Shown one piece after another: positions 2,680-34,052 of a stretch of 48,880 nucleotides of DNA. Within the stretch, counting starts at the first letter, position 1. The number at the start of each line of letters is the position of its first letter. The position numbers and the translations under genes are program-made. The notes beneath the pieces were generated by a model. The model ran no database searches, was not told the origin of the DNA, and saw only the letters and a list, made by a program, of their open reading frames with translations. The DNA is from Bacillota bacterium (GTDB lineage: Bacteria; Bacillota; Sulfobacillia; JAJZYS01; JAJYTV01): positions 1 to 48,880 of the forward strand of contig JAJZIE010000001.1 of assembly GCA_021810725.1 (NCBI GenBank), given 5' to 3'.

Positions 2680-2903
2680 ATCCGCACCTCCTTGGTGGGA
2701 CGGCACAGTATCGTCCCGTCCTCCTTCTACGCTCGAGACCGTCCGGGTGCTCCGACCCATTGGTCCGAGGTCCAATCCGTATGCGGGTCGGAAGGCGCCG
2801 AGGGAGCCGGCGTGGAAGGATGTTGCGGCGGTGGAGGATCCTCATCCAGGTTGCCCTTGGGCGTTGACCCATTCCGAAGAACAGCAGCAGGGAGTGAGAG
2901 CAG

Positions 2904-10389: not shown

Positions 10390-10425
10390 GGCCCTTCGGG
10401 GCGGTGGGGAAAGCGGTGCAGTGCC

Positions 10426-11778
10426 TTGTCGGCTACGCAGGCGGGACGAACACTCGAGATCGCGGGCTGGGGACATGCCGTGCGCCAACAGGCGGACGTG
10501 CTGCGGCCCGAGCAGCAGGGTCGCCTCGCTGAGGCGCTCCGCGGCCCGGGCATCGCCCGTGGCCTCGGCAGGGCGTACGGCGATGCGGCCCTCTCGCAGG
10601 GCAGGGTTTGGCAGACGACGCGTCTCAGCCGGATGCTGTCGCTGAGCGAGGCCGGCCTCCTGACCGCGGAGGCCGGCGTCTCCCTCGGCGACATCGTGCG
10701 CACCTTCCTGCCGCGCGGCTGGACCCTGCCGGTGACGCCCGGCACCCAGTGGGTTACGCTCGGTGGCGCCGTGGCGGCCGACGTGCACGGCAAAAACCAT
10801 CACGCCGCCGGCACCTTCGGCCAGCACGTCAAGGAACTTGTCCTGCTCACGGCCGACGGACAGCTCAGGCGCATTTCGCCCGAAGGCCAGAAGGAACTCT
10901 TCTGGGCCACCGTCGGCGGCATGGGCCTGACCGGCGTCATCGTAGAGGTGACGGTCCAGCTCGTGCCCGCCGAGACCGGCTATTTGAGCGTCGACTACGT
11001 CCGCACAGGCGGACTCGAGGAGACGCTCGAGTGGTTCTCCGGCCACGACCGGCAGTATCCCTACACCGTCGCCTGGATCGACGGCCTGAAGGAGGGTCAG
11101 GGGCTTGGCCGCGCCGTGCTGATGGGCGGCCGGGTGACCGCGTCCCGCGAACTCACGGCCGGCGAACCAAGGTACCCGATGCCGCGCGGCGCCGTCCGCG
11201 TGCCGTTCGACTTTCCGAAGGGCAGCCTGAGCCTGCCCGTGGGACGAGCCTTCAACGCGGCCTACTACGGCATGCATCGTCCCCGCCAGAACGCGCGCGA
11301 GCCGTGGTGGAAGTTTTTCTACCCGCTCGACGTCGCCGAAGACTGGTACCGGCTCTATGGGCGGACAGGATTCGCGCAGTACCAGGGCGTCTACCCGCCC
11401 GAGGTCGGTCTTGGAGAGATCCGCGCCATCCTGCGCCGTATCCACGCGGCGCGCCATCCGAATTTCCTCGGCGTGCTGAAGCGCATGGGGCCCGCGTCTC
11501 CCGGCATGCTCTCGTTCCCGCGCGAGGGGCTCACCCTGGCCCTTGACCTCCCGGTGCAGGGCGAGGGAACCCTGCGCCTGTTCCAGGACCTCTACGCGAT
11601 GACGGCGGACTACGGCGGGCGGGTCTACCTGGCGAAGGACGCCTTCCTCACGCCCTCGATGTTCCGCCGCATGTACCCAGGCTGGGAGGCCTTCCTGGCC
11701 GTCAAGGCCAAGGTGGATCCGCAGGGCATGTTCCGCTCCCTGCTCTCGGAGCGCGTCGGCCTCGGGGAGGTGCGCTAG
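10426..11778 (+). CDS. dprE1: FAD-dependent oxidoreductase, DprE1-like (decaprenylphospho-beta-D-ribofuranose 2-oxidase family)
   Basis: RGLGRAYGDAAL and GGAVAADVHGKNHH motifs typical of DprE1-type PCMH flavoenzymes; TTG start. Confidence 0.8.
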   Translation: MSATQAGRTLEIAGWGHAVRQQADVLRPEQQGRLAEALRGPGIARGLGRAYGDAALSQGRVWQTTRLSRMLSLSEAGLLTAEAGVSLGDIVRTFLPRGWTLPVTPGTQWVTLGGAVAADVHGKNHHAAGTFGQHVKELVLLTADGQLRRISPEGQKELFWATVGGMGLTGVIVEVTVQLVPAETGYLSVDYVRTGGLEETLEWFSGHDRQYPYTVAWIDGLKEGQGLGRAVLMGGRVTASRELTAGEPRYPMPRGAVRVPFDFPKGSLSLPVGRAFNAAYYGMHRPRQNAREPWWKFFYPLDVAEDWYRLYGRTGFAQYQGVYPPEVGLGEIRAILRRIHAARHPNFLGVLKRMGPASPGMLSFPREGLTLALDLPVQGEGTLRLFQDLYAMTADYGGRVYLAKDAFLTPSMFRRMYPGWEAFLAVKAKVDPQGMFRSLLSERVGLGEVR

Positions 11779-15676: not shown

Positions 15677-16312
15677 TCAGATGGACCGCCAGAGTGACAT
15701 CAGCCATGGGATGGCCACAAGCCCCACCCCCTCGAGCAGCACGATGCCCGCGAGGGTCGTGAAGACATACGGGAGGTACGCGGCGCTGCGACGCAGCTCC
15801 TTGCGCACGTCGCCCAGGGCGCTGCGGCGGTAGCGGGCGATCGAGTCGCTGAGCGGCAGACCCAGCTGCGCGTCTCGCGAGAGCAGAGCGACCAGCCGGT
15901 CCGTCTCCGGTGTGCGCAGACTGAGGCGCAGGCCGTCGAGCGCGGCGGCGACGCTGTGCCCCTCTTGCACCCGATCCTGAAAGGACCTGAGGGCCGGACC
16001 CAAGGGGTCCTGCGCCCAGAGCCCCGCGTAGCGCAGGGCCGCGTGCAGCGGCTGGCCGGCGGCGGCGGCCATCGCGAGGTCGGTGAGAAGGCCGGGAACG
16101 GCCCGCCGCACCTGATCGCGGGCGCCGCTTTTGGCGAGGGCCGTCGGGAAGCGCCGCCAGAGCATCGCGGCAGGCCCGGCCAAGGCAAAGAGGGCCATGC
16201 CCCAGGGCGCGAGGAGTGCCAGGCCGATCCAGATCGGCAGCAGCAGGGGGCGCTGCCGGCCGGCGCGCCAAAGCGCCATGGCCAGCACCAGACGTGGAAG
16301 TGCCGCGATCAT
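15677..16312 (-). CDS. tadC: T2SSF-domain membrane protein, TadC-like (short, 211 aa)
   Basis: VPGLLTDLAMAAAAGQPLHAALRYA block typical of GspF/TadBC domains, with flanking TM segments. Start overlaps the tadB stop. Confidence 0.7.
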   Translation of the reverse strand: MIAALPRLVLAMALWRAGRQRPLLLPIWIGLALLAPWGMALFALAGPAAMLWRRFPTALAKSGARDQVRRAVPGLLTDLAMAAAAGQPLHAALRYAGLWAQDPLGPALRSFQDRVQEGHSVAAALDGLRLSLRTPETDRLVALLSRDAQLGLPLSDSIARYRRSALGDVRKELRRSAAYLPYVFTTLAGIVLLEGVGLVAIPWLMSLWRSI

Positions 16313-17016
16313 GGCAGGAGCGCGGACGCGAGATAGGGCACGCCGCCACCCGTCACGAGCGCCAGGGCGATGAGCCAGGGAATGGGAGCGTTGCCTTCGG
16401 CCGCGAGCACCAGCCCCGTGAACAGGAGGGCCGTGGCCATCAGGCCCGTGACCACGAAGTAGGGCAACGTCTCACCCTCCACGCTCGCCACCTCGCGCCG
16501 GTCGTCCGCCGCGTCCTCGAGCAGCACCGCAAGGTGGCGGTCCAGGGGCGCTCCCGTGTGTCGGCTGAGCGCGAGGGCCCTGGCGAGCCGGACCAGGAGC
16601 CCGATGCCGGCCCGTTGCCCAACATCGGCGAACGCCGCCTCGCTCGAGCCGCCGCGCAGCCAGTCCGCCAGGGCGGACTGCCAGAGCGGGCGCAGGTCGT
16701 CGCTGCAGGCCGGCAGGGCCGCCAGGGCGCAGAGCTCCGCGCTGCCGTAGAGCGAGGCCTGTTCGAACATGGCCTGGATCGGCTCCTCCGCCGCGACCGC
16801 GAGACGTCTAAGGCGCGCGTGCCGCAGATACTGGCGAAGACCCGCCTGCCAGAGCGCGACGGACGCCGCGGCCGCGAGCGCGACCGCAAGCCCCGAGGCC
16901 AGGGCGACCGCGAGCGCGACGAGCGGCGGCAAGAAACGCGCCATGCGCCGCGCGCCACCTGTAGCGAGGCTCGCGCCGAGCAACGCGACCGCGGCCAGGA
17001 GCACCGCGCCGTTCAT
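16309..17016 (-). CDS. tadB: T2SSF-domain membrane protein, TadB-like (235 aa)
   Basis: N-terminal TM, cytoplasmic helical domain, C-terminal TM pair. ATG at 17016 overlaps the tadA stop (ATGA); the upstream part of the 318-aa track ORF is an Arg/Pro-rich artefact. Confidence 0.65.
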   Translation of the reverse strand: MNGAVLLAAVALLGASLATGGARRMARFLPPLVALAVALASGLAVALAAAASVALWQAGLRQYLRHARLRRLAVAAEEPIQAMFEQASLYGSAELCALAALPACSDDLRPLWQSALADWLRGGSSEAAFADVGQRAGIGLLVRLARALALSRHTGAPLDRHLAVLLEDAADDRREVASVEGETLPYFVVTGLMATALLFTGLVLAAEGNAPIPWLIALALVTGGGVPYLASALLP

Positions 17017-17948
17017 GGCCACACCTGCCCGCCACGGCCCTCGTCGTATTGCAGCAGCATAGTCGGCCGGCGCTGTCCGCCGCTCCCGCGCTCGAGGTGC
17101 ACCACGCCGCCGAGGAGATGGCGCAGTCTGACGCGCAGCAGGCGAGGCGGCATGCTGCGGGCCGGAGCGGCCGCGTACACGAGACGTTCCGTCACGTCCC
17201 AGGCCGAGGTGGCGTGCAAGGTCGTCAGGCTGCCGCGATGGCCGGTGTCGAGGGCGGAGAGCCACGCCACCGTCTCGCGCCCGCGGATCTCCCCGACGAT
17301 GATGCGGTCTGGACGCATGTGCAGGGCGAGCCGCAGGAGGTCCTCGAGGTCGATGGCGTAGAGCCCGGCGCGGTTGGGAGAGCGCGTTTCCAGGGCGACG
17401 ACGTGCGGGTGGACACGGCCAAGTTCAAGCTCGCGCGTCTCCTCGATGGTCAGGAGCCGTTCGGATGGGTCGATGACCTCCGCGAGCAGGCGGACGAGCG
17501 ACGTCTTGCCGGTGCCGGCCGCGCCCGCGATCACGACGTTGCGGCGGTTTTTCACCCAGGAGCGCAGGATGCGCATCGGCCGCTCGTCCCCGTCGAGTGC
17601 CTCGAGCCATGCCCGCTCGAGGTCCACCTTGGCCACCTTGCGGATCGTCAGGGTCGGGGCGGGCGTCAGGGGCGGCATGGTGGCGGTGAAGCGCACGCCG
17701 TCGCCAAGTCGTCCGTCCGCGTAGGGCGAGGCCTGCGTGAGTTCGCGCCCCAGCGGCAGCAGCAGCCGCTCGATCAGCTCCTGCAGGGCGCGGCGGTCCG
17801 GGAAGGTCGCCGGTTCGGGGCCGACCTTGCCGCGCCGCTCGACGAACACGCGGTCGAAGTCGAGCACCATGATCTCGCTCACCTCCGCATCCCTGAACGC
17901 GGCCTCGAGCGGGCCGAGCCAGTAGCCGAGGTGCGTCTCAAAGGGCAT
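17013..17948 (-). CDS. tadA: Secretion ATPase of the TadA/CpaF/VirB11 (T2SSE) family, short form (311 aa)
   Basis: Walker A GAAGTGKTS; Asp box LLTIEETRELEL; Walker B RMRPDRIIVGEIRGRE; His box TGHRGSLTTLHA. ATG at 17948 lies 10 nt after GGGGAG. Confidence 0.85.
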   Translation of the reverse strand: MPFETHLGYWLGPLEAAFRDAEVSEIMVLDFDRVFVERRGKVGPEPATFPDRRALQELIERLLLPLGRELTQASPYADGRLGDGVRFTATMPPLTPAPTLTIRKVAKVDLERAWLEALDGDERPMRILRSWVKNRRNVVIAGAAGTGKTSLVRLLAEVIDPSERLLTIEETRELELGRVHPHVVALETRSPNRAGLYAIDLEDLLRLALHMRPDRIIVGEIRGRETVAWLSALDTGHRGSLTTLHATSAWDVTERLVYAAAPARSMPPRLLRVRLRHLLGGVVHLERGSGGQRRPTMLLQYDEGRGGQVWP

Positions 17949-18813
17949 GGTCCGCCGTCTCCCCGCGCCGGCGCCAGATCTCCGCTCCATGGCGCGCGAG
18001 GGTCTGTCTGCGCAGGGGAAGGCGTCCCGCCGGCACCTCGGTCAGGGCGGCGAGCGGCGCGAGACCCGCGAGCCAGCGCCGGTACTCGTCTTCCACCGCG
18101 GCTGCGGCGAGCAGGATGTCGCTCGCGTGCGCCAAGGACGCGATCAGGCCGCGGTCGCCGAGATTCGCGCTCGCGCGCACGACCACATGCCGCTCGCCGC
18201 GGTCGCGCTCGAGCCGGTCGAGCAGCGGCTCCATGCCGGAGCGCAGCAGGAGCTGCGGCTGGATCGGAGCCGGCACGACCCTCAGCCTCCGCGGGTAGCC
18301 CGGTAGCTCCTGGGACTGCCCCGACGACATGTACGCGGCTAGGCATGGCTTGAGCTTCAAGCGGCGCGCGTACTGGGGTTCGGCCGTATCCGTCTCGACG
18401 AGCAAGGTGCTGCGGCTGCGGGCCAGGTGGCAGGCGACGGCGAGGGCCACCACCGCCCCCTGGCCGGCATCCCCCGGCGCCACGACCACGGCCAGCGCCG
18501 GCTGCTCGCCGGACGGCTCGCCGCGCAGCTCCGCGGCGAGGTCGTCGAGTGCCAGATCGCCGCGGGCGGTGAAGCGTCCGCGCAGCCACGCGATCTCGGC
18601 GTCGGGGTGTACCACCTCGATGCGGCGCAGGGCCCGCTGCTCCTCGCCCGAGCGCACAAGACCGGGATCGATGACGACGCGGGCGTACTCCTCGTGCAGC
18701 ATGCGGTCTTCCGTCTCGGCCAGGGACAGGGTCAGGGGTTGGCCGTAGACGGCCGCACCGCGCTCGTGCAGCTGCAGCACCGTCTCAGGATGCAGGGCGT
18801 AGAGCGAGCGCAA
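17938..18813 (-). CDS. tadZ: TadZ/CpaE-like assembly protein with a degenerate MinD/ParA-type P-loop
   Basis: Position between cpaB and tadA. LAVVVAPGDAGQGAVVALAVACHLARSRSTLLVETD aligns to the CpaE xxGAKGGVGxTTxAxNLA...LVDLD block but lacks K and G-K-T. TTG start lies 6 nt after GTAGGAGGGA. Confidence 0.5.
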   Translation of the reverse strand: MRSLYALHPETVLQLHERGAAVYGQPLTLSLAETEDRMLHEEYARVVIDPGLVRSGEEQRALRRIEVVHPDAEIAWLRGRFTARGDLALDDLAAELRGEPSGEQPALAVVVAPGDAGQGAVVALAVACHLARSRSTLLVETDTAEPQYARRLKLKPCLAAYMSSGQSQELPGYPRRLRVVPAPIQPQLLLRSGMEPLLDRLERDRGERHVVVRASANLGDRGLIASLAHASDILLAAAAVEDEYRRWLAGLAPLAALTEVPAGRLPLRRQTLARHGAEIWRRRGETADHAL

Positions 18814-18824
18814 GGCAATCCCTC

Positions 18825-19394
18825 CTACTCTTGCGGCGTGGCGGTGATGATCAGGTGGCCCGCGGCGACGCCCGCGAGGAGCGCCGGGAGAAGCGCCTTG
18901 GATACCTCGAGAGCGACAGAGGCACCGGTGCCGCCGGGCGCCACCTGCGCCAGCGGCACCAGAGACTCCGGCGCCTGCCCGGCCTGGGCGATGTAGACGG
19001 ACACCAGCTGTCCCGCCGAGAGTGGCGGTGCGCTTAGGAGGGCGCCTGCCGGGATGCCGACCACCTGGCCGCCGGCGCTGGACCTCGCGGGTCCCACCCT
19101 GACCGCGCTGCGCAGGAGAGGTAGGCCCGCGGCCAGCGGGACCGCGAGCCGTCCTTCGGGCCGACGGAGGAGGGGTCCCGGCAGTTTGCCCGTCCAGTGC
19201 GCCTGCCGCACGTCGGCGGCAGTCAGGGAGGTGCCTGCGGGGAGATTCCGCGCGGCTACGAGGATGGTTTCGCCAGAGCCGAGAGTTGCCGCCTCGAAGG
19301 CCAGAAAGGCGAACAGGGCGCTCAGCACCGGCAGCCAGAGGGGGTCGCGCAGGCGCTCAGCGAGGGCGCGCAAACTGGGGACGCGTGTCGACAA
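18825..19394 (-). CDS. cpaB: CpaB/RcpC-like Flp-pilus assembly protein (TM anchor plus SAF domain)
   Basis: TM segment LWLPVLSALFAFLAF, then ILVAARNLPAGTSLTAADV (SAF-like). TTG at 19394 lies 9 nt after GGAGAGGAGG. Confidence 0.6.
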   Translation of the reverse strand: MSTRVPSLRALAERLRDPLWLPVLSALFAFLAFEAATLGSGETILVAARNLPAGTSLTAADVRQAHWTGKLPGPLLRRPEGRLAVPLAAGLPLLRSAVRVGPARSSAGGQVVGIPAGALLSAPPLSAGQLVSVYIAQAGQAPESLVPLAQVAPGGTGASVALEVSKALLPALLAGVAAGHLIITATPQE

Positions 19395-21063
19395 GGCGCA
19401 GTTCCTCCTCTCCAAGCTGTACCGCAAAGGGCAGCGTGCCGAACTCATCCAGCAGCAGGGCCTCGCCGGGGCGGCAAGACCTGAGAAAGTCCAGGGCGCG
19501 ATCGGAGAGGCGGAGAACTTCCTTGAGGCGAGGCAGATCGCTCGGCTGCTGGTGGAAGAGCGTCAGGCGGCCGGCGTTGGCGAGCACGAGCCTGCCTCCT
19601 GTCGACTCCACGAAGTCGCCAACGTTCTGGGTGACGATCGTGACGATGAGGCCGCGCTTGCGCGCCCGCTTGGCGAGGTCGACGAGCGCGTCCTCCGCGC
19701 CGCCGGCTCCCAGCCAGAGATGAGCCTCGTCGAGGGTGAGCCAGAAGGGCTGACGCAAGGCCAGGGCCTCTGCCGAGGAGATGGCGTAACGGGCGGCCTC
19801 ACCCAGCAGGGACGGCCAGGCCGCCTGCGGCAGGCTGCGCAGCGACAGGGCCAGACGGGTCGGGCCCTGGGCGTCTGCGGGCAAAGCCGCGCCCGACTCG
19901 CCGCCCAGATGCCGCACGACGGGCAGGTACTCGCCCTCCGGATCGACCACGAGCAGGTAGTCCGGCCGCTGTCGAAGGAGTTCCGCCTTAACGAAGGCCG
20001 ACTTGCCATGCCCGGGGCTTCCCAGTACCACCGCCATCGGGTTGGCGGCGTGGAGGCGGTCCCGCCGCACGGAGGTGCGGTCCCTGAGGTGCACGCCGAG
20101 CTGGTCGCCTTCGGCGGCGGGCGCCGCGGCGGGCGTCAAGTCCAGGCAGGAGAGGGCGGTGGCCGTGAGCAGGCGGGCCGGTGGCTCGCGCCTGCTCGGC
20201 AACGGCAGGAGCCAGTCCTGCTGGGCCGCCTGCAGGCCCAACTGCACTTGCAGGAGGAAGCCCATCTCGGCGAACGTGGTGCGCATGAGGGCCGCTTGCG
20301 CCTCACATCCGCCGCGGTCCGATCCCTCGGCCGCGATCAGCCACGCCGTGGCAAAGAGGCGCTCCCGTCCCTCCACGATCACCTCGCGCAGCTTGAAGGC
20401 ATCCTCTTGCGCCTTCTCCGTCTCGACGTCCGGCAGGCGGCCACGCTGGCGGCGCAGGAAGGAACTCGCGTGCAGGTGCTGCAGCCGCCGCTCCAGGCGG
20501 AGCCGTGCTTCCGCCGCGGAAAGCGGGCTGAGCCGCAGGGCCACGATCGCGGTCTGCGAGAGGGACCACAGCCGCTCGAGGCTGAGCTCGTCCAACTGCT
20601 CCGGATAGGACTCCACCGCCATGAGCTGGCGGAAGCCGGTGCCCGCCTCCAGAAGGCGCATATGGGCGCGGGGCCCTGTGCGGCCCGACGTGGGGAAGGC
20701 CGCGCGCGGTCGGGCGGTCACCCGTCCGGTGCCTGCGAACCAGTGGGGCAAGGCGGGATTGGCGATGGCCCAGCGAAGCTCGGCCGGTGGTTCCTCTCCG
20801 AGCGGCCGAGCCGCAATGCCCAGGTCTTGCAGGGCCTGTTGGTTGCCCGCGCCCTCCTGGAGCCAGAGGTAGAGGTGGCGGAGCGCGGCCTGTAGCGAGA
20901 GCGTGAAGAACAGGGGACCCTGCACGGAGAGCAGGAAGTTGCGCAGCGCGACCTGATGGGCGTCGCGTTCCTCGGCACCCAGCCAGGCGTATTCCCTGCG
21001 ACCGAGCTCATAGATGGTGCCGGCGGGCAGGTGTGCGTCGAGGGAGTGCGGCGACCATCGCAT
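19357..21063 (-). CDS. virB4: VirB4/TraE/PrgJ-family conjugation-type ATPase, compact (568 aa)
   Basis: Walker A VVLGSPGHGKSAFVK followed by LLVVDPEGEYLPVVRHLGG; Walker B FWLTLDEAHLWL; LIVTIVTQNVGDF. The N-terminal LGAEERDAHQVALRNFLLSVQGPL block is typical of Gram-positive VirB4. Confidence 0.8.
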   Translation of the reverse strand: MRWSPHSLDAHLPAGTIYELGRREYAWLGAEERDAHQVALRNFLLSVQGPLFFTLSLQAALRHLYLWLQEGAGNQQALQDLGIAARPLGEEPPAELRWAIANPALPHWFAGTGRVTARPRAAFPTSGRTGPRAHMRLLEAGTGFRQLMAVESYPEQLDELSLERLWSLSQTAIVALRLSPLSAAEARLRLERRLQHLHASSFLRRQRGRLPDVETEKAQEDAFKLREVIVEGRERLFATAWLIAAEGSDRGGCEAQAALMRTTFAEMGFLLQVQLGLQAAQQDWLLPLPSRREPPARLLTATALSCLDLTPAAAPAAEGDQLGVHLRDRTSVRRDRLHAANPMAVVLGSPGHGKSAFVKAELLRQRPDYLLVVDPEGEYLPVVRHLGGESGAALPADAQGPTRLALSLRSLPQAAWPSLLGEAARYAISSAEALALRQPFWLTLDEAHLWLGAGGAEDALVDLAKRARKRGLIVTIVTQNVGDFVESTGGRLVLANAGRLTLFHQQPSDLPRLKEVLRLSDRALDFLRSCRPGEALLLDEFGTLPFAVQLGEEELRLVDTRPQFARPR

Positions 21064-21101
21064 CAGAGCGGAACACGACCCGCGATCGGGTCAATCGACA
21101 T
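21063..21101 (-). CDS. 12-codon upstream ORF (MSIDPIAGRVPL) whose stop overlaps the virB4 start (TGATG)
   Basis: ATG lies 11 nt after AAGGAGG. The virB4 ATG has no SD of its own, which suggests translational coupling. Confidence 0.3.
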   Translation of the reverse strand: MSIDPIAGRVPL

Positions 21102-21518
21102 CAGACCACGACCCTCCTTGTGGGATAGGTCGTTATTCCAGCAAATGTAAATGACACCTGCAAAATACTGTTCGGACTGTCCATTTCTGGCGCAGTCCGT
21201 AGGCTCAGCCTCGGTGCGGTATCCACCAGTGCGCGACGCCAGGCTCCACCGGGCCCAGACTTGGCTCGGCCACCGCGCCGCCAGCGGGAAGTCCCCTTGA
21301 GCACTGCGGCGGACGCCTGCCGGCGATGGGGCGACACCCTGGGGCTTCGAGCGTGGCAGTACGGTCGGGCACCGCCGCGTCCTGAGCGCGGCCAAGGGTC
21401 GGGTAGCTGGACGCTATGCCTGTGAAGGGTAACATAGCCGCCTGCGCCCCCTTCGAGGTTTGCCACAAGTTATGTAACGTCCGTCGTCCGTGCCACCGCC
21501 CGGGGTCCGCGACAAGGC

Positions 21519-21545
21519 GGCGGCGCCGCAGGACGCGGCGCCGCC
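21519..21545 (-). terminator. Perfect 11-bp GC hairpin (ggcggcgccgc-N5-gcggcgccgcc) 32 nt downstream of the dapB-like stop
   Basis: Read directly; no U-tract. Confidence 0.4.
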
Positions 21546-21576
21546 GAGGTATCGAGGCCGGAAGGAGCCGAGCGTT

Positions 21577-22377
21577 TCAGGCGAAGAGCAGGCGGTCCAG
21601 ACCGCGCACCAGTCCCTGCACCCTCAGGACTTCTCTCGTCGCGAGCAGCGTGCCCGCGACGTAGGGGTCCGCCCCGGACCCCGCGTCGTGGCGGATGGTC
21701 AGCCGCTCGTTGGGTAGGCCGAAGATCGTCTCGAACGCGATGACGTAGCTCGGCAGGCGCAACGAGTGCACCTGCGTGCCTTCGATCTCGGCGCCTCGCG
21801 TGTCCGGGCGACCGTGCAGGGCGGAGGGCGCCACCTCCTGGCGAGGCCGCGCCACTTGTCCCAATTCCTCGGCGAGTTCCTGCACCGTGCCGCTGGGCGC
21901 GTCCATCTTGCCCGCGCTGGCGTAATCGATGATCTCCCACGACGGAATGTACTTGGCCGTCTCAAGCGCGAAATGCTTGGCGAGAGCCGCCGTGATCGAG
22001 AAGTTGCCCGCCGCGATGACGCCTAGGCCCTTGGCCGTCGCCAAGGCGGCGATCTCCTCGTAATCCTGCGCCGTGAGGCCGGATGAACCGATCACGACAC
22101 GCACCCCGCGCTCGAGCGCGAGGATGGTGTGGCGTTTCACCGCCTCGGGCGAAGTGTAGTCGATGAGCACGTCGGTCGGTTCGGTGAGCGCGGACGCAAG
22201 GTCGGGGGCGATCTGGACGCCCGCCGGGGAAAGCCCGAGTGCCGTACCGACGTCGGAGCCAGCCAGCCGTCGCGCTACGGCGCCCGTGAGCTGGAAGCCT
22301 TCCGAAGAAATGATCTGCCGCGCGACGGCGCCGCCCGTCCAACCGGTCGCTCCCGCCACGCACACACGAATGGTCAT
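21577..22377 (-). CDS. dapB: 4-hydroxy-tetrahydrodipicolinate reductase (DapB)-family protein with a non-canonical active-site motif
   Basis: VAGATGWTGG Rossmann motif; DVLIDYTSPEA; GNFSI; KMDAPSGT. The canonical E-x-H-H-x-x-K reads IIDYASAGK. ATG at 22377 lies 9 nt after AGGAG. Confidence 0.75.
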   Translation of the reverse strand: MTIRVCVAGATGWTGGAVARQIISSEGFQLTGAVARRLAGSDVGTALGLSPAGVQIAPDLASALTEPTDVLIDYTSPEAVKRHTILALERGVRVVIGSSGLTAQDYEEIAALATAKGLGVIAAGNFSITAALAKHFALETAKYIPSWEIIDYASAGKMDAPSGTVQELAEELGQVARPRQEVAPSALHGRPDTRGAEIEGTQVHSLRLPSYVIAFETIFGLPNERLTIRHDAGSGADPYVAGTLLATREVLRVQGLVRGLDRLLFA

Positions 22378-22447
22378 CGTCACCCGCTCCTGGAGAGTGT
22401 GCCGCCACCTTCTGCCGTTGGCGGAACGTTCGCCTGTCGCCCTCCGG

Positions 22448-22813
22448 TTACCTGCTGTCCCGCGGTCTACCCACTAGACAATGCGCGATGGTTTCGAACT
22501 GATGCCTCGGCCCGTCCTGCGCCGGATCCTGCCAAAGGGTGACGTCGTGATGCTCCGCGGCGGGCGAGCGGCGCAGGGTGTGTCGCCAGAGGCGCGGCGC
22601 GAGGCGCCGGATCGGTTGGCCGTCGACCTCGAGCAGCGCGTAGCCCGCGCAGGGACCCGCCAGCAGGACGGCGACCAGGAGCGGCAGCCGCCCGGCGAGC
22701 GCCGCGAGAGCCAGCAGCCCGACCGCGAAGAACGAGATCGCCTGGCTCGTCTCGAGGTCACCCCAGATGCGCGGCTGCACCTGCAGCAGGTCGACCGGTA
22801 CGTGGCACTTCAC
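22448..22813 (-). CDS. PrgI/VirB3-like small T4SS membrane protein (121 aa)
   Basis: VPVDLLQVQPRIWGDLETSQAISFFAVGLLALAALAG... matches the PrgI-family pattern (short N-terminus, conserved L-x-x-x-Q, then two TM segments). GTG start overlaps the upstream stop (GTGA). Confidence 0.6.
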   Translation of the reverse strand: MKCHVPVDLLQVQPRIWGDLETSQAISFFAVGLLALAALAGRLPLLVAVLLAGPCAGYALLEVDGQPIRRLAPRLWRHTLRRSPAAEHHDVTLWQDPAQDGPRHQFETIAHCLVGRPRDSR

Positions 22814-23514
22814 AGCAGGAGGCGCCGCCAGGCGCCGAGCAGAGTGAACGGCAGGCGCAGCATGAAGAAGAGCAGCACGAGACTCAGCAGCATGTCCGAT
22901 GCGGGCACCGCGATCGAGAGTTCTCCCGCGAGACCGCGCACGCCCACCAGGATGAAGGCCTCGGCGGCTGGCAGGACCGACCACGCCGCCGTCTGCCAGA
23001 TCCAGAGCATGGGGATGCGCCCAAGGCGTGCGTGCACACCCAGCAGGAAGGCGAGCGGCGCGACGGAGGAGAGCAGCGCGAGCGCTGCGAGACGCGCCAG
23101 GAGCAGGCCCGCCAGGAAGACAAGCATGAGGAGGTATGGCACGCCGAAGACGAGCAGGTCTATGAGACTGGACCCGAACCCCATCGCAGGAACCGCCACC
23201 GCCCCCGCCACCTGGCCGACCGTGGCCACGAGGGCGTCGTTCAGCTGCCAGAGCCAGGAGACGATGGTGTGGCTCACGAGCACGCCGCCCACGGCGAGCA
23301 TGAGGCGCGCCACCGCCTGCAGGGACCGGCCGTAGCCGGCCTCCAGCATGAACAGCGGTACCGCGAGCGCGCCACCAGCCAGCAGCGCGATGTGGGAGAG
23401 CTCCGACACCACGGCGCCGGACGGCGGGAAGCCATGCGCCCAGAGCAGGGCGCCCACCCAGCCGTACGCGCGCTGCAGCGCCGGGCTCAGAGCGGCGCGG
23501 AAAGTCCAGCCCAT
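22810..23514 (-). CDS. Polytopic (about 6 TM) membrane protein, VirB6/TrbL-like, miniature (234 aa)
   Basis: Hydrophobic profile. The LALLSSVAPLAFLLGVHARLGRIPMLWIWQTAAW block resembles the TrbL/VirB6 core. ATG at 23514; the upstream part of the 323-aa track ORF is an Arg-rich artefact. Confidence 0.5.
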   Translation of the reverse strand: MGWTFRAALSPALQRAYGWVGALLWAHGFPPSGAVVSELSHIALLAGGALAVPLFMLEAGYGRSLQAVARLMLAVGGVLVSHTIVSWLWQLNDALVATVGQVAGAVAVPAMGFGSSLIDLLVFGVPYLLMLVFLAGLLLARLAALALLSSVAPLAFLLGVHARLGRIPMLWIWQTAAWSVLPAAEAFILVGVRGLAGELSIAVPASDMLLSLVLLFFMLRLPFTLLGAWRRLLL

Positions 23515-23729
23515 TGGAAGATCACCCGTACGATGTCCTTGGCGAAGATCACGAGCACCAGCCCGGCCATCACCGAGTACAGGTGGCCCCAGGCGCGCGT
23601 GCGGTGCTGCGGATTGTCGCCGCTCGTCCAGAGCAGGTACGCGCCGTAGAGCAGGGCGAGCACCGCGAAGCCCGCGAACCAGCTTTGCAGCGTCGTGATG
23701 GCGTTGAGGACGAACTGCAGGATGGGCAT
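23487..23729 (-). CDS. 80-aa two-TM protein, Maff2/VirB2(TrbC)-like candidate pilin or channel subunit
   Basis: MPILQFVLNAITTLQSWFAGFAVLALLYGAYLLWTSGDNPQHRTRAWGHLYSVMAGLVLVIFAKDIV. The TM-loop(GDNP...)-TM layout recalls the Maff2 family of Firmicute conjugative elements. Confidence 0.5.
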   Translation of the reverse strand: MPILQFVLNAITTLQSWFAGFAVLALLYGAYLLWTSGDNPQHRTRAWGHLYSVMAGLVLVIFAKDIVRVIFQWAGLSAPL

Positions 23730-23734
23730 CGAAC

Positions 23735-24097
23735 CTAATCCTGCGCCAAGGCGTCGGCCGGCGCCTTGCCTTCAGGAGCATCCTCGCCCAGCGGCAGGGG
23801 AGGATCCAGAAAGCGCAGGCGGTCCGCGACGATCTCGATCACGCGGCGCTGTTCCCCGTCCGAGGTGTCGAGGGGGCGACTCGCGATGCGGCCTTCGATG
23901 CCGACCAGCCTGCCCTTGAGCAGGTACTTGGAGGTGGCCTCGGCCAGCCTGCGGAACATGACGACGGGCAGGAAATCCGTACTGTTGCCCGCGCGGCCGA
24001 TCGCCAGCGAGAACGCGGAGATCGCGAGGCCGTCCCGCGAGTAGCGGAGAACCGAGTCCGTGGCGAGCCGACCGACCAGGACAACGCGGTTGATCAT
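23735..24097 (-). CDS. ssb: Single-stranded DNA-binding protein, short form (120 aa) without the canonical acidic D-D-D-I-P-F tip
   Basis: MINRVVLVGRLATDSVLRYSRDGLAISAFSLAIGR...VVMFRRLAE...YLLKGRLVGIEGRI OB-fold signature. ATG lies 7 nt after AAAGGAGAG. Confidence 0.85.
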   Translation of the reverse strand: MINRVVLVGRLATDSVLRYSRDGLAISAFSLAIGRAGNSTDFLPVVMFRRLAEATSKYLLKGRLVGIEGRIASRPLDTSDGEQRRVIEIVADRLRFLDPPLPLGEDAPEGKAPADALAQD

Positions 24098-24127
24098 GGG
24101 ACATCTCTCCTTTCTTGGCGCGGAAGT

Positions 24128-24149
24128 CCCATTCGATCCTCGAAATGGG
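24128..24149. promoter_or_regulatory. Imperfect inverted repeat CCCATTCGA-TCC-TCGAAATGGG in the divergent ssb / O-methyltransferase intergenic region; candidate operator
   Basis: Read directly. Confidence 0.3.
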
Positions 24150-24222
24150 TTATCCTTCCAACGGATGTTCGCCTGTCGGTGGCGAATGCCGTGCATGGCC
24201 TCGACCGAAAGGGGGAGCTTCG

Positions 24223-27981: not shown

Positions 27982-28010
27982 TTGAGGTCATAGGAAGCGG
28001 GTGATACAAT
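27982..28010 (+). promoter_or_regulatory. Candidate sigma-A promoter TTGAGG-N17-TACAAT with extended TG
   Basis: Read directly. It lies inside the 5' end of the track ORF 28001.., which supports the later TTG start. Confidence 0.45.
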
Positions 28011-28066
28011 ACGGCAGTCCTACAACTTCTGCCGAATGGAAGGTTGTAGGAAGAAGGAGGTCCGTC

Positions 28067-28882
28067 TTGCCACAGCTACGACAGGCAGGATGGCGCAGCA
28101 TCGCGCTGATATCGGGCGCCCTGCTCGTCCTGCTTGCGGGTTACGCCGCAAGGGCAACCGCCCTGCGCAGCAGCCCCCCCGTGCGGGCGGCTGCGAAGGC
28201 ACACAAGACGCTCACCAAAAAGCCGCTCCCTCTGCCCACATACGGCGCGACGCTGGACAGCGCCGATCCGGCCCCCGGTTACCAGAATGCTCTCTGGAGC
28301 GGCACCGTGCAGAATACGGCCACGATCGTGGCCGCGCGGCTGAGCGACGTATCGGTTCCTGTTTCGTACGGCGTGCGCAAGGTCTATGACCCCAACCTTG
28401 CGCTGGGCAGCGAAGTCGTGGCGGCCAAGGGCCAGCCCGGCGTGGCGGTGGAGACGGTCCGCCGCATCTACCAGGGCGCGCGGGTCGTGTCCGTGGCGAT
28501 CGTCGGCGAGACGGTCGTGAAGGCGGCCCGTCCCGAGCTCGTGCACATTGGCGCCAAGCTGCCCGAGGTTTCCCGCGGCAGCTTCACCGGGCGCGTGGCG
28601 GCAACCCTGAACATGGTCGCCACCGCGTACTGGGCGGATCCCAGCTGGTCGAACGGCAGAACGGCCACAGGCGTTCCCGCACGCTACGGCGTCGCGGCGG
28701 TGGATCCGAGCGTCATCCCGCTCGGCACGCGGCTCTTCATTCCCGGCTACGGCTACGCGGTGGCCGCGGATACCGGCGGGGCGATCGTCGGAGATCGCAT
28801 CGACCTCTGTTTCGATACGGGGCAGCAAGCCCTGGATTACGGTCGCCAAAGCGTCACCGTCTACGAACTCGCGACCAACTAG
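28067..28882 (+). CDS. YabE-like cell-wall protein (TM anchor, G5-like region, C-terminal 3D/RlpA-like domain)
   Basis: TTG lies 6 nt after AAGGAGG. The C-terminus ATAYWADPSWSNGRTATG...AVDPSVIPLGTRLFIPGYGYAVAADTGGAIVGDRIDL is the 3D-domain signature. Position after tatD matches Bacillus. Confidence 0.8.
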   Translation: MPQLRQAGWRSIALISGALLVLLAGYAARATALRSSPPVRAAAKAHKTLTKKPLPLPTYGATLDSADPAPGYQNALWSGTVQNTATIVAARLSDVSVPVSYGVRKVYDPNLALGSEVVAAKGQPGVAVETVRRIYQGARVVSVAIVGETVVKAARPELVHIGAKLPEVSRGSFTGRVAATLNMVATAYWADPSWSNGRTATGVPARYGVAAVDPSVIPLGTRLFIPGYGYAVAADTGGAIVGDRIDLCFDTGQQALDYGRQSVTVYELATN

Positions 28883-33208: not shown

Positions 33209-34039
33209 ATGGCGAAGGGCGCCCTTATGCTGATCGGCGGGCACGAGGAGCCGCGCGGCGAGATCCTGCGCTGCTTCAGCGAACTCGTGGGGGGCTCGCG
33301 CGAGATCGCCCTCTGCACCCTGGCGACGGTGGAGCCCCAGGCGGCGTTCAAGCGTTACCGCGAGAGCCTGAGGGACCTCGGCGTCACGGCCGTGCACCAC
33401 CTCGACGCCCGCACGCGCGAGGACTGCAGCGACGAGCGGGGCATCGGCCTGCTCGAGCACGCGGATGGGATCTTCTTTTCCGGCGGCGACCAGCTGCGCA
33501 TCACGAGCGTCCTGGGCGGCACGCCGTACGAGGATGCCTTGCGGCGCGCGCATCTTCGTGGCGCGGTGATCGGTGGAACCTCGGCCGGCGCTTCCGCGAT
33601 GAGTTCGACGATGCTGGTCGGCGGCGAGGACGAGGAGTCCGCCCGGCGCGGCACGGTCACGATGTGCGCGGGCCTCGGCCTCCTGCCGGACGCAGTCGTG
33701 GACCAGCACTTCGCCCAGCGCGGCCGCATCAACCGCCTGCTGGCCGCGCTTGCGCAGAATCCCGGCATCCTCGGCATCGGCATCGACGAGAACACGGCCG
33801 TGCTCGTGCATCCCGGCGAGCGCATGCAGGTCCTGGGCAGCGGCACGGTCACGGTGCTCGACGCCCGCGGCGCGTACGTCGGCGACGCCTCGGAGGCGGC
33901 CGTCGACAGGCCCATGCGGCTTGGCCCCGTCGCGCTCTGGGTGCTGCCCGAACGGTCCACGTTCGATCTCGCCCGACGCGTGTCGACGCATAATCCCGAT
34001 TCCCCGGGGGAACATAGCGAAGCGCCTGCATCGCGCTGA
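33209..34039 (+). CDS. cphB: Cyanophycinase (peptidase S51), intracellular type
   Basis: LMLIGGHEE; GIFFSGGDQLRI; GGTSAGASAM (catalytic Ser); VDQHFAQRGRINRL. No signal peptide. Confidence 0.85.
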   Translation: MAKGALMLIGGHEEPRGEILRCFSELVGGSREIALCTLATVEPQAAFKRYRESLRDLGVTAVHHLDARTREDCSDERGIGLLEHADGIFFSGGDQLRITSVLGGTPYEDALRRAHLRGAVIGGTSAGASAMSSTMLVGGEDEESARRGTVTMCAGLGLLPDAVVDQHFAQRGRINRLLAALAQNPGILGIGIDENTAVLVHPGERMQVLGSGTVTVLDARGAYVGDASEAAVDRPMRLGPVALWVLPERSTFDLARRVSTHNPDSPGEHSEAPASR

Positions 34040-34052
34040 GGAGGAGCCTTTC

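Follow-up and report, generated by a model that had tools for sequence, protein, structure and literature searches.

Does a run of eleven minus-strand genes that mixes parts of a conjugation-type type IV secretion system (T4SS), parts of a Tad pilus system and a protein (SSB) that binds single-stranded DNA encode one machine, two neighbouring machines or the remains of a mobile element? The window, that is, the whole 48.9 kb stretch of DNA analysed here, comes from a small hot-spring group of Firmicutes that are uncultured and represented by metagenome-assembled genomes (MAGs). We favour, at a probability of about 0.5, the reading that two filament or secretion toolkits have been joined here into a domesticated chimera, fixed in the chromosome, and together build one apparatus, which would probably handle and traffic single-stranded DNA (ssDNA). 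What is new is a conserved chromosomal operon that joins a conjugation-type T4SS core, a Tad motor and an SSB.

Gene content of the locus

The eleven co-oriented genes of the original prediction are all present, each where it had been placed (Table 1). They run in the order ssb, VirB2-type pilin gene, polytopic membrane protein gene, prgI (PrgI/VirB3-like) and dapB, followed by virB4, cpaB (SAF), the TadZ-position gene, tadA (TadA/CpaF), tadB and tadC. The ssb and pilin genes lie 5 nt apart, the pilin and polytopic protein genes overlap by 28 nt, and gaps of 14 nt and 11 nt separate the polytopic protein gene from prgI and cpaB from the TadZ-position gene; the virB4 and cpaB reading frames overlap, and ATGA overlaps occur at tadA/tadB and at tadB/tadC. 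Support from HMM or structural matches is solid for the SSB, pilin, VirB4, SAF, TadA, TadC and DapB, and weak for the PrgI family, whose match falls below the cutoff. Two of the eleven predicted labels fail HMM thresholds: ‘VirB6-like’ and ‘tadZ-like’ have no HMM, PDB, profile or structural match and are assignments by position.

Table 1. Features of the locus and the evidence for each, with positions in the window.
Feature	Position	Strand	Evidence or remarks
Regulatory element upstream of ssb	24131..24171	-	CGAACATCCGTTGG, then candidate sigma-H-type promoter GAAGGATAA, 12 nt spacer, ATCGAAT
ssb	23735..24097	-	120-aa single-OB SSB; PF00436 3e-23, TIGR00621 1e-22
VirB2-type T4SS pilin	23487..23729	-	80 aa; PF18895 T4SS_pilin 8e-9, above cutoff; TrbC 5e-5
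Polytopic membrane protein in VirB6 position	22810..23514	-	234 aa, about 5-6 TM segments
PrgI/VirB3-like two-TM protein	22448..22795	-	115 aa; PF12666 3e-4, 21.5 bits vs cutoff 27
dapB (4-hydroxy-tetrahydrodipicolinate reductase)	21577..22383	-	TIGR00036 158 bits vs cutoff 122
GC-rich hairpin, terminator candidate	21507..21557	-	Inverted repeat I22, 23-nt arms, 5-nt loop
Second regulatory element copy, ahead of virB4	21135..21174	-	CGAACAGTATTTTG-CAGGTGTC-N11-CTGGAAT; dapB clade only
12-codon uORF MSIDPIAGRVPL	21063..21101	-	AAGGAGG ribosome-binding site; TGATG overlap joins its stop to the virB4 ATG
VirB4-family ATPase, short form	19357..21063	-	568 aa; NF045971 (CD1110 family) 5e-38; TIGR00929 2e-9
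CpaB/RcpC-like protein	18825..19448	-	SAF 4e-6, above cutoff; TIGR03177 1e-3
TadZ-position protein	17938..18813	-	291 aa; same place as TadZ in L016
TadA/CpaF-family ATPase, short form	17013..17951	-	About 311 aa; T2SSE 5e-35, TIGR03819 3e-64
TadB-like platform protein, TadC paralogue	16309..17022	-	hhalign A4 vs A5: probability 90%, E 1.7e-6
TadC-like platform protein	15677..16312	-	One T2SSF domain, PF00482 3e-9, above cutoff

In the T4SS half, hydropathy shows the pilin as a hairpin of two helices that lacks a signal peptide, and the protein is 77-100% identical across the clade (dN/dS <=0.06). It had been called ‘VirB2/Maff2-like’; the T4SS_pilin match bears out the first part of that label, whereas an HMM search found no match to Maff2. 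The polytopic protein has no match in Pfam, NCBIfam or PDB, and VirB6 homology is not detectable; its orthologues are conserved and begin with an invariant MGW. The bona fide conjugative plasmid pTZC1 shares the order of this half (small TM protein, polytopic protein, PrgI, VirB4), and an hhalign comparison of the two polytopic proteins was not significant. The PrgI match is weak in the orthologue from locus L003 as well. VirB4 retains intact Walker A (GSPGHGKS) and Walker B (LTLDEAH) motifs and lacks about 120 aa of the canonical helical insert; it matches PDB 4AG5 at 7e-19, and the top Foldseek matches of its AF2 model are TrwK/VirB4 and 4AG5 (probability 1.0). The short family, 18 clusters in all, is isolated (932 bits within the family vs 231 bits to the next relative), its canonical relatives measure 720-800 aa, and this VirB4 is nearest to those of the CD1110 family from Gram-positive conjugative systems. 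L004 has an ORF similar to the uORF that precedes virB4, but conservation does not extend to L005 or L008.

In the Tad half, CpaB has a single N-terminal TM segment by hydropathy, followed by the SAF domain, and its actual start codon is probably 20-60 nt downstream of position 19448, as tblastn alignments begin at residue 12-27. The TadZ-position protein has no Pfam match and matches VpsO weakly in the P-loop region (E 0.065); its fold may be MinD/ParA-like but degenerate, GDAGQGA standing in place of Walker A, and its single-sequence AF2 model was unusable (pLDDT 32). Compared with CpaF, TadA is missing ~145 residues at the N terminus, and in PDB it is closer to CpaF (4e-50) than to VirB11 (3e-20). 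Members of its short family are 310-313 aa long, while the next relatives are 365-530 aa and at most 47% identical. The TadB-like protein has the topology TM, cytoplasmic domain, TM.

The absences claimed by the original prediction hold within the window: it contains no relaxase, T4CP (coupling protein), hydrolase, Flp- or TadE-like ORF, or prepilin peptidase. The orthologous loci that were annotated or blasted gave no sign of a relaxase, T4CP, hydrolase, Flp pilin or prepilin peptidase either, and no orthologous locus has a Flp or TadE gene. Genes for a relaxase, T4CP, Flp pilin, prepilin peptidase or ComEC may nevertheless lie outside the window. Because the DNA-nicking and DNA-coupling enzymes are missing, the locus resembles a domesticated DNA-traffic or filament machine rather than an ordinary mobile element.

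Inheritance and regulation of the cluster

Ten of the genes (dapB excluded) keep one order across about 10 related Bacillota MAG species over a VirB4 identity range of 50-100%, so the virB4/tad adjacency does recur in relatives, and the virB4/cpaB overlap is kept in every species. Most relatives share the core-chromosome site beside metG-tatD; in L003 the entire block has moved together into a different genomic context. Cluster genes have dN/dS values of 0.0-0.47, similar to the 0.10-0.28 of the flanking metG, tatD and tag, and purifying selection acts on all ten. An integrase, att site, tRNA, Rfam match and flanking repeat are all lacking from the window, and the GC content of the cluster matches the host. 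These observations agree with the earlier view of a resident chromosomal cluster rather than a recent integrative and conjugative element (ICE).

Judged from its distribution, dapB was inserted in one lineage, where it splits the operon: only the window, L004, L005 and L008 have it between prgI and virB4, and it is missing from the more distant L001/L009, L003, L010, L012 and L103. In all loci without it, prgI is directly upstream of virB4. The hairpin just downstream of dapB has no U-tract.

In every species examined, a regulatory element precedes ssb, with which the operon opens, and in 7 orthologous loci it is kept at an equal distance from ssb. It is the window's sole match at <=1 mismatch (0.28 expected by chance) to a sigma-H consensus (PMC4754846) that comes from Listeria/Bacillus and is applied here to a distant lineage. 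The elements of L003 and L005 match that consensus weakly, as do the copies next to virB4, which fit it less well than the ssb-upstream copy does. The core pattern of the regulatory element occurs twice in the window (0.03 expected) and not at all in 1.18 Mb of control loci. The second copy is found before virB4 only where dapB has split the operon. Because the promoter element is conserved and was duplicated with that split, the two halves appear to be co-regulated; together with the conserved order, the virB4/cpaB overlap and the block move in L003, comparison of the loci shows the ten genes to be one inherited, co-regulated unit, as had been predicted.

A proposed apparatus and its alternatives

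Based on these comparisons we can propose how one apparatus might work. A Gram-positive (MPF-FA/FATA-like) inner-membrane set, made up of the VirB2-type pilin, the polytopic protein, PrgI/VirB3 and VirB4, and the cytoplasmic-membrane set of a type IVc pilus (CpaB, the TadZ-position protein, TadA, TadB and TadC) would assemble, with the dedicated SSB that heads the operon, into a single envelope-spanning structure. With PrgI and the polytopic protein as its docking site, VirB4 would draw the pilin out of the membrane and so build a short filament or conduit. Extension and retraction, or the spanning of the wall, would fall to CpaB, which faces the wall, and to the motor-platform of TadA, TadB and TadC. 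In ordinary Gram-positive T4SSs, such functions come from a hydrolase and VirB8-like parts. In this model the Tad platform would act on or beside the VirB2-type pilin; the halves could also be co-regulated yet physically separate.

The cargo would be ssDNA, which the operon's SSB would coat in the cytoplasm, and import or cell-to-cell exchange seems likelier than relaxase-driven export by analogy with ComB, a DNA-importing T4SS (PMC12857230), and Ced/Ted (PMC9905601), both of which import DNA with neither T4CP nor relaxase. Expression would come at the transition to stationary phase, from the sigma-H-type promoter; in Listeria, sigma-H promoters drive comG, comE and coiA (PMC4754846). With an SSB present, no T4CP or relaxase and a sigma-H-like promoter, a role in DNA uptake is plausible. 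The SSB itself is closest in PDB to Firmicute SsbA/SsbB, and its acidic tail is variable among the tails compared and lacks the canonical DDDIPF-type tip. It does not settle the direction of transfer, since SSB genes occur on exporting conjugative plasmids too (2421 plasmid matches).

A possible though doubtful alternative is that two machines are co-located and co-regulated, a minimal T4SS-derived pilus or channel with the SSB, and a Tad motor that draws its Flp pilin, pseudopilins and prepilin peptidase from genes elsewhere and whose pilus serves the T4SS part as a contact or retraction aid. T4SS and tad loci do adjoin as complete modules on plasmids of Embleya and C. acnes, with the VirB4/FtsK/TcpC locus of the latter directly upstream of tad (PMC5696575), and the R64 thin pilus that assists conjugation, PAPI-1, and the Ups pili that assist Ced offer precedents (PMC12857230, PMC12102498). 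The ordinary Tad locus L017 has Flp-like and TadE-like ORFs and shares a GC of 0.70 and a sample series with the hybrid locus L002, so that pilins supplied in trans are conceivable. However, the overlap of virB4 with cpaB in every species, the movement of the block as one, the loss of Walker A from the TadZ-position protein and the lack of a Flp or TadE gene in every orthologous locus argue against two machines, as does the exclusive co-distribution of short VirB4 and short TadA, both of which are found only in this cluster.

Adhesion is the classic role of Tad systems, and the locus might have a non-DNA function, as an adhesion or contact pilus or in protein secretion like Bartonella Trw or the Patescibacteria T4SS, with the SSB a passenger or regulatory; we consider this unlikely. 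T4SSs without T4CP can form adhesive pili or secrete proteins (PMC12857230), and the chromosomal, relaxase-free T4SSs of Patescibacteria, with PF18895 pilins, are required for epibiotic growth and not for conjugation (PMC12102498). However, ssb stands first in every species examined and ranks with the cluster's most constrained genes (dN/dS 0.016-0.14), which is hard to explain without ssDNA handling.

It is less probable still that the locus is a module for mating-pair formation within a conjugative or mobilising system that exports DNA, with relaxase, coupling protein and oriT elsewhere (a split or trans-acting ICE). The CD1110-family affinity of VirB4 and the frequency of SSBs on conjugative plasmids would fit such a module, a T4CP gene may be distant from virB4 (PMC12102498), and the Embleya plasmid pairs its T4SS and Tad genes with a T4CP and a replication-relaxation protein. 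Against this stand the shared chromosomal site and flanks of most species, the host-like GC, the vertical inheritance with housekeeping-like dN/dS, and the absence of integrase, att site, tRNA, relaxase, T4CP and hydrolase from the 48.9 kb, the last three not being evident in orthologous flanks either. A decaying ICE remnant with no current function, which the missing canonical parts (relaxase, T4CP, hydrolase, Flp, TadV), the two shortened ATPases and the lost Walker A might suggest, is effectively refuted by conserved gene order and intact frames in about 10 species, dN/dS well below 1 for each gene, catalytic motifs invariant in both ATPases across the compared loci, and a conserved promoter re-created after the dapB insertion.

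Relation to known systems

The one-apparatus reading places the locus among known combinations as a conserved new variety; the idea, which the original prediction called previously undescribed, is not entirely without precedent, as seen in the actinobacterial T4SS/tad plasmids, ComB, Ced/Ted, the Patescibacteria systems, and PAPI-1, which with R64 is among the T4SS/type IV pilus chimeras reviewed in PMC12857230. The premise that T4SS and Tad modules never combine was likewise too strong. The Embleya plasmid carries PrgI, VirB4, T4CP, a replication-relaxation protein and a hydrolase, then SAF-TadA-TadB-TadC-TadE-TadG, although there and in C. acnes the modules are complete and separate, and contig L080 has CpaB-VirB4 within a Tad locus. 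The nearest TadA homologues outside the clade sit in ordinary Firmicute Tad loci (VirB4 in 0/3), and the Tad half would therefore derive from a normal Tad system minus its pilins; in L016 and L017, a Flp-like ORF and TadE-size ORFs follow tadC.

Gene content of the array

GC3-guided ORF calling in the window, where GC is about 70%, recovered eleven same-strand genes on the minus strand at 15677-24097, just as the original prediction had them, and with the tight junctions that it described (ATGA and TGATG overlaps, gaps of 5-14 nt). In HMM scans, the SSB matches PF00436 (3e-23); its C-terminal tip is not canonical, and comparison with PDB and plasmid sequences did not separate competence-type from plasmid-type SSBs. 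The 80-aa, two-helix pilin scores above cutoff against PF18895 (T4SS_pilin, 8e-9) and also matches TrbC/VirB2 (5e-5), while the PrgI-like protein (115 aa, two TM segments) gives a weak match to PF12666 (3e-4, 21.5 bits vs a cutoff of 27), the label being supported by its two TM segments and conserved position. The CpaB-like protein carries a SAF domain (4e-6, above cutoff) and an N-terminal TM segment; the RcpC domain proper was not detected in it by HMM scans. The TadA/CpaF ATPase matches T2SSE (5e-35) and, under the cutoff, TIGR03819 (3e-64); in PDB comparisons it is nearer to CpaF (4e-50) than to VirB11 (3e-20), and it lacks about 145 N-terminal aa. TadC matches PF00482 (T2SSF, 3e-9) and TadB is its paralogue (hhalign probability 90%), a PDB profile search with the TadB family returning nothing significant. 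DapB is genuine (TIGR00036, 158 bits vs a cutoff of 122).

Two labels of the original prediction, 'VirB6-like' and 'TadZ-like', found no HMM, PDB or profile-profile support. The 234-aa polytopic membrane protein at the VirB6 position had no family match in HMM scans, its family gave nothing significant in a PDB profile search or in per-member Pfam scans, and hhalign against its 281-aa counterpart from pTZC1, which carries a Gram-positive conjugative T4SS, was not significant. The 291-aa protein at the TadZ position has GDAGQGA at the place of the MinD/ParA Walker A motif. It likewise had no family match in HMM scans, per-member Pfam scans or a PDB profile search, its hhalign comparisons with TadZ of an ordinary Firmicute Tad locus (L016) and with a 285-aa protein of an Embleya plasmid were weak and not significant, and a single-sequence AF2 model (pLDDT 32) gave no usable fold. 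For both proteins, the names denote position, size and topology.

The VirB4-like ATPase (568 aa) matches NF045971, the CD1110 family (5e-38), and TIGR00929 (2e-9), with 131 bits against NF045971 being far under the equivalog cutoff of 325. The assignment has independent support, because the family profile matches the VirB4 structure of T. pseudethanolicus (PDB 4AG5, 7e-19) and because the AlphaFold model on the family alignment, in which the ATPase domain reaches a pLDDT of about 85-90, has R388 TrwK/VirB4 and 4AG5 as its top Foldseek matches (probability 1.0). The protein is about 170-200 aa shorter than VirB4 of Gram-positive conjugative T4SS, and its family is an isolated clade. A word-indexed search of 5.8 billion clustered proteins, with a single sequence or a profile as query, surfaced only 18 relatives, all of 562-582 aa, and nothing wider; in an exhaustive HMMER search of 1.84 billion representatives the family scored 932 bits and its next relative 231 bits. 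Beyond the clade are 4247 distant VirB4s, most among the matches listed being longer, commonly 600-900 aa, and an outgroup-profile scan of metagenomes found distant VirB4s only and no genomic context for the true sister clade (P0021-P0030). In the search for wider relatives, the genomic context of P0019 proved to be unrelated.

Conservation, surroundings and shared control

The virB4-tad adjacency recurs in related genomes: without dapB, the same ten genes (ssb, pilin, membrane protein, prgI, virB4, cpaB, the TadZ-position gene, tadA, tadB, tadC) are found in that order in about ten species-level Bacillota/'Clostridia' MAGs, one labelled Thermaerobacter sp. and many with hot-spring-style bin names. 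Assemblies with the cluster include GCA_021793215.1, those with the prefixes JAJZAT, JAJYSZ, JAJZQO, JAJYSJ and JAKAPV, and DAIBJA. VirB4 identity across these loci ranges from 50% to 100%. The block mostly lies beside an O-methyltransferase gene, and also beside metG-tatD wherever the contig reaches that far; in one orthologous locus (L003) the entire block has a different genomic context, and therefore it moves as one unit. Estimates of dN/dS are 0.0-0.47 across all cluster genes vs 0.10-0.28 for metG, tatD and tag, and the Walker motifs of VirB4 are invariant. Every cluster gene is under purifying selection.

The flanking genes (see the table) resemble what we take to be the conserved chromosomal neighbourhood of endospore-forming Firmicutes, going by Bacillus gene order. 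A cyanophycin synthetase gene (33750-36692, plus strand) sits inside this otherwise Bacillus-like ksgA...ispE-purR-glmU-prs neighbourhood, and in the orthologous locus L001 a cyanophycinase-type Peptidase_S51 gene adjoins the synthetase gene.

Features in and around the locus
Feature	Position	Strand	Remarks
dapB and downstream DNA	21064-22383	-	inserted between prgI and virB4; about 500-840 nt non-coding downstream of dapB
GC-rich hairpin	21507-21557		within the dapB insert
uORF, 12 codons	21063-21101	-	stop overlaps the virB4 start
Bipartite element CGAACA-N4-TTKG-NAGG...GAAT	24131-24171 (ssb copy), 21135-21174 (virB4 copy)	-	also in orthologous loci L001, L003, L004, L005, L006, L007, L008, L010
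3D/G5 protein	28001-28882		conserved yabE-type housekeeping neighbour, outside the cluster
Right flank		+	O-methyltransferase, metG, tatD, yabE-type G5/3D protein, ksgA, RNaseH-like, veg
Right flank, further		+	cyanophycin synthetase, ispE, purR, glmU, prs, 1174-aa ORF, spoVT
Left flank			tag, methyltransferase, HAD hydrolase, UbiA, SDR, GH15 enzyme, glucose dehydrogenase, PmbA/TldD

Within the 48.9-kb window there is no relaxase, coupling protein, integrase, transposase, tRNA or Rfam family; a repeat search of the window returned chance GC-rich matches only, with no att-like direct repeats, and sigma-70 and terminator scans gave no informative feature. Neither a relaxase domain nor a T4CP (VirD4/TcpA) is evident in the flanks of the orthologous loci either. 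HMM scans found no VirB1-type hydrolase and no VirB8/TcpC-like scaffold among the cluster genes. For the Tad half, no small hydrophobic ORF that could be a Flp pilin or TadE/F pseudopilin lies past tadC or in the gaps, tblastn with the Flp and TadE sequences of two ordinary Firmicute Tad loci (L016 and L017), together with a motif scan, gave no counterpart in the window or the orthologous loci, and no Peptidase_A24 domain, as expected of the prepilin peptidase TadV, occurs in the window. Over this span, then, the original prediction was right about what is missing: relaxase, coupling protein, hydrolase, Flp pilin and prepilin peptidase.

In all species examined, ssb is preceded at about 75-85 nt by the element CGAACAT-N3-TTGG, followed by (A/C/T)AGGAT, about 16 nt and CGAAT; the copy in the window reads GAAGGATAA, a 12-nt spacer and ATCGAAT, and the predicted transcription start is near 24123. 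It has one mismatch to the sigma-H consensus RMAGGRWWW-N11-12-RRMGAAW (PMC4754846), a consensus that comes from a lineage distant to the host, and it is the only site in the window with at most one mismatch (0.28 expected). The core pattern occurs at two sites in the window vs 0.03 expected and at none in 1.18 Mb of unrelated loci. The second of these sites holds a weaker copy, which precedes virB4 by about 110 nt and is found only in genomes in which dapB and a GC-rich hairpin interrupt the operon. That insertion is confined to the nearest sub-clade (the window, L004, L005 and L008); elsewhere, prgI overlaps virB4 directly. Since the element is duplicated ahead of virB4 where the operon is split, the insertion has left the two halves under common control. 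The ten genes are one inherited, co-regulated and selected unit. In Listeria, comG, comE and coiA are driven by sigma-H promoters (PMC4754846).

The CGAACAT half of the ssb element also resembles half a LexA/Cheo box. Read as such a box, CGAACA-N4-GTTGG has a perfect first half-site and a degenerate second one, which is not kept as GTTC in L003 or in the virB4-proximal copies, and we rejected this reading.

Origins of the two halves and known relatives

In gene order, the T4SS half follows genuine conjugative modules of Gram-positives. The module of pTZC1 runs MobC, relaxase and VirD4, next a 67-aa protein and a 281-aa membrane protein, and then PrgI, VirB4 (CD1110) and a lytic transglycosylase/C40 hydrolase; by comparison, ssb replaces the relaxase/T4CP side in our cluster and the Tad genes replace the hydrolase side. 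The succession of a small two-TM protein, a polytopic protein, a PrgI/VirB3-like protein and VirB4 is common to the cluster and the MPF-FA/FATA systems (pTZC1, PrgH-PrgI-PrgJ of pCF10, the CD1110 family of CTn2), and the cluster VirB4 scores best against the CD1110 family and the T. pseudethanolicus protein. Unlike these systems, however, the cluster has no T4CP, relaxase, MobC, VirB1-type hydrolase or VirB8/TcpC-like protein; it has a PF18895 VirB2-type pilin and a Tad module in the hydrolase position, and it is chromosomal and vertically inherited.

The nearest TadA homologues outside the family (45-47% identity, 365-445 aa vs 311 aa for the cluster TadA) sit in ordinary Firmicute Tad loci without VirB4. 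One of these, L016, has the full order RcpC, TadZ, TadA, TadB, TadC, and downstream of tadC in L016 and L017 come a Flp-like ORF of 69-72 aa, which has a G/xxxY-type leader, and two TadE-size ORFs. The cluster shares with monoderm Tad (Flp, type IVc) systems such as L016-L018 the order CpaB(SAF), TadZ-position gene, TadA, TadB, TadC, and its TadB and TadC are single-T2SSF paralogues as in those systems. It differs from them in having no Flp, TadE/F/G or prepilin peptidase, a shortened TadA, a TadZ-position protein without Walker A, and the fusion of its Tad module with a virB4 operon. In Gram-positives, DNA uptake is among the possible uses of Tad pili, as in Micrococcus luteus, where the tad and com loci are needed for transformation (PMC4322843). 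L017 (SRR33270664), which lies beside tmk-holB-yaaT and is a standard Tad locus that has both Flp-like and TadE-like ORFs, shares its GC (0.70) and sample series with L002 (SRR33270663), a contig bearing the hybrid cluster; hybrid-bearing organisms may thus own a conventional Tad system too, able to supply pilins.

The premise of the original prediction that the T4SS and Tad toolkits never combine was too strong. In linear plasmids of C. acnes, a locus for FtsK-like, VirB4 and TcpC proteins immediately precedes a functional tad locus; whether the two are functionally linked was left open by the authors (PMC5696575). An Embleya sp. plasmid (NZ_CP108778.1, 274-297 kb; PLSDB type non-mobilizable) encodes PrgI, a VirB4-like ATPase, a T4CP, a replication-relaxation protein and NlpC/P60, and about 10 kb on, on the same strand, SAF, an unnamed gene, TadA, TadB, TadC, another unnamed gene, TadE and TadG. 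A soil contig (L080, 44-8752; 74% GC, of actinobacterial appearance) has TadZ, TadA, TadB, TadC, a TadE-like protein, a 121-aa ORF, CpaB(RcpC/SAF) and a 723-aa VirB4-like ATPase, the last two directly adjoining, with no PrgI/VirB6-type gene among the ten ORFs scanned with Pfam; here, independently, a VirB4 gene lies within a Tad locus. These actinobacterial cases have in common with our cluster that conjugation genes of VirB4 type and Tad genes adjoin and point the same way. In contrast to it, those described as plasmids retain complete sets of Tad pilins (TadE/TadG), the Embleya plasmid keeps its T4CP, replication-relaxation protein and NlpC/P60 and the C. acnes plasmids an FtsK-like translocase, none of which the cluster has, and they have neither an ssb-first operon nor a PF18895 pilin. 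These examples suggest that T4SS-Tad partnerships in Gram-positives are under-appreciated.

In P. aeruginosa PAPI-1 and the IncI R64 thin pilus, too, DNA transfer involves a VirB4 ATPase together with a type IV pilus machine (PMC12857230). PAPI-1, however, is a mobile island that exports DNA, keeps VirD4 and a relaxase and has a type IVb pilus with its own pilins, whereas the cluster has no T4CP or relaxase and combines a Tad-type machine without a type IV pilin with a VirB2-type pilin. Such chimeras have been reviewed together with T4SSs without a T4CP (ComB, Trw, Ptl) and the relaxase-less, VirB2-pilin T4SS of Patescibacteria (PMC12857230, PMC12102498). ComB, Ced/Ted and the Patescibacteria T4SS resemble the cluster in having a minimal, chromosomal VirB2/VirB3/VirB4/VirB6-type set without relaxase or T4CP, the VirB3 and VirB6 of the cluster being putative, but have no TadA/TadB/TadC and no SSB in the operon. 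They also differ in host, the cluster belonging to a Firmicute of spore-forming type (the window includes spoVT and veg) rather than to a CPR bacterium, an archaeon or a diderm. The ComB set comprises VirB2, 3, 4 and 6-10 and works with ComEC; its outer-membrane parts, VirB7-10, are not applicable to a monoderm. Ted loci often have a MinD/ParA-like gene (PMC9905601). The cluster resembles the archaeal importers in architecture only and lies outside the CedB/TedB and CedA/CedA1 families: the CedB model gives E 1.4e-3 with VirB4 (17 bits vs a cutoff of 700), a match well below those of the bacterial VirB4 models. PF18895 pilins are used by the Patescibacteria T4SS (PMC12102498); the cluster has such a pilin and no relaxase in the window, and the pilins of two likely CPR loci (L025, L035) are 33-34% identical to it.

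In three loci with distant VirB4s (L025, L035 and L073, from the 0.1 um fraction of Hainich groundwater and other sources), which are probably from Patescibacteria, a pilin 32-34% identical to the PF18895 pilin of the window lies 3-4.5 kb upstream of virB4. In another (L072), a T2SSE-family ATPase 31% identical to the window TadA, which may be VirB11, lies 7 kb upstream of the VirB4 gene (2805-3410, 10001-11419).

The locus is a variant within known kinds, namely domesticated T4SS derivatives and T4SS-pilus chimeras. Its particular form, a compact chromosomal ssb-first operon in a Firmicute that joins a VirB2-pilin T4SS core to a pilin-less Tad motor, has not been described as far as the searched literature shows.

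Proposed function and its alternatives

The gene array of the original prediction stands, and its interpretation is supported in part. The cluster encodes a single pilin of conjugative type and none of type IV, along with two motor ATPases that are intact and belong to different superfamilies, and its T4SS core is translationally coupled to the Tad motor. We propose, at roughly even odds (about 0.5), that the encoded proteins make up a single apparatus that moves ssDNA. In it, the VirB2-type pilin would be handled by VirB4, PrgI and the polytopic protein, the Tad motor and platform with CpaB would give dynamics or a wall-spanning function otherwise missing from the cluster, and SSB would coat the DNA. 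Import or exchange of DNA would be favoured by the analogy with ComB and Ced/Ted and by the promoter class.

Among the alternatives, the strongest, although improbable in itself, is that the two halves are separate, co-regulated machines, with Tad pilins supplied in trans. A pilus or secretion function that does not involve DNA is less probable again; it leaves the ssb gene at the head of the operon to be accounted for. Less credible still is a split conjugative exporter, which would have its relaxase and T4CP elsewhere in the genome. A decayed remnant is ruled out, to the extent that we give it almost no weight, by purifying selection on each gene and the invariant Walker motifs of VirB4.

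The ssDNA apparatus can be drawn more boldly as a single chimeric nanomachine, in which TadA-TadB-TadC with a wall-spanning CpaB would share with VirB4 the assembly and retraction of a VirB2-type pilus. Spore-forming thermophilic Firmicutes would import ssDNA through this pilus and coat the DNA with the dedicated SSB, expression being under sigma-H-type control in stationary phase. This full version is speculative and, taken whole, unlikely. If true, it would be a third architectural type of bacterial competence/DNA-exchange apparatus and the first case of a conjugative-type pilin on which a type IV filament platform acts or to which it is physically coupled.

To our knowledge, VirB2-type pilins in monoderms are currently taken by T4SS specialists as a peculiarity of Patescibacteria; here a bona fide Firmicute lineage has one. 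T4SS/type IV pilus chimeras have been regarded as rare diderm oddities (PMC12857230), and in this lineage the core chromosome has, as a fixed part and under purifying selection, a T4SS inner-membrane core translationally coupled to a Tad motor that lost its own pilins. If the halves are one machine, they show how two unrelated filament-assembly systems can merge. If DNA is imported, the cluster would open to thermophilic Gram-positives a new path to natural transformation or chromosomal exchange and would be the counterpart, among bacteria, of Ced/Ted.

The clade bearing the cluster is small and uncultured. One of its MAGs, 'Clostridia bacterium clean5020' (DAIBJA01), has two versions of the cluster (L006 and L013), with VirB4 100% identical to that of the window in one and 78% in the other, which points to a mixed bin or to two co-existing strains or species.
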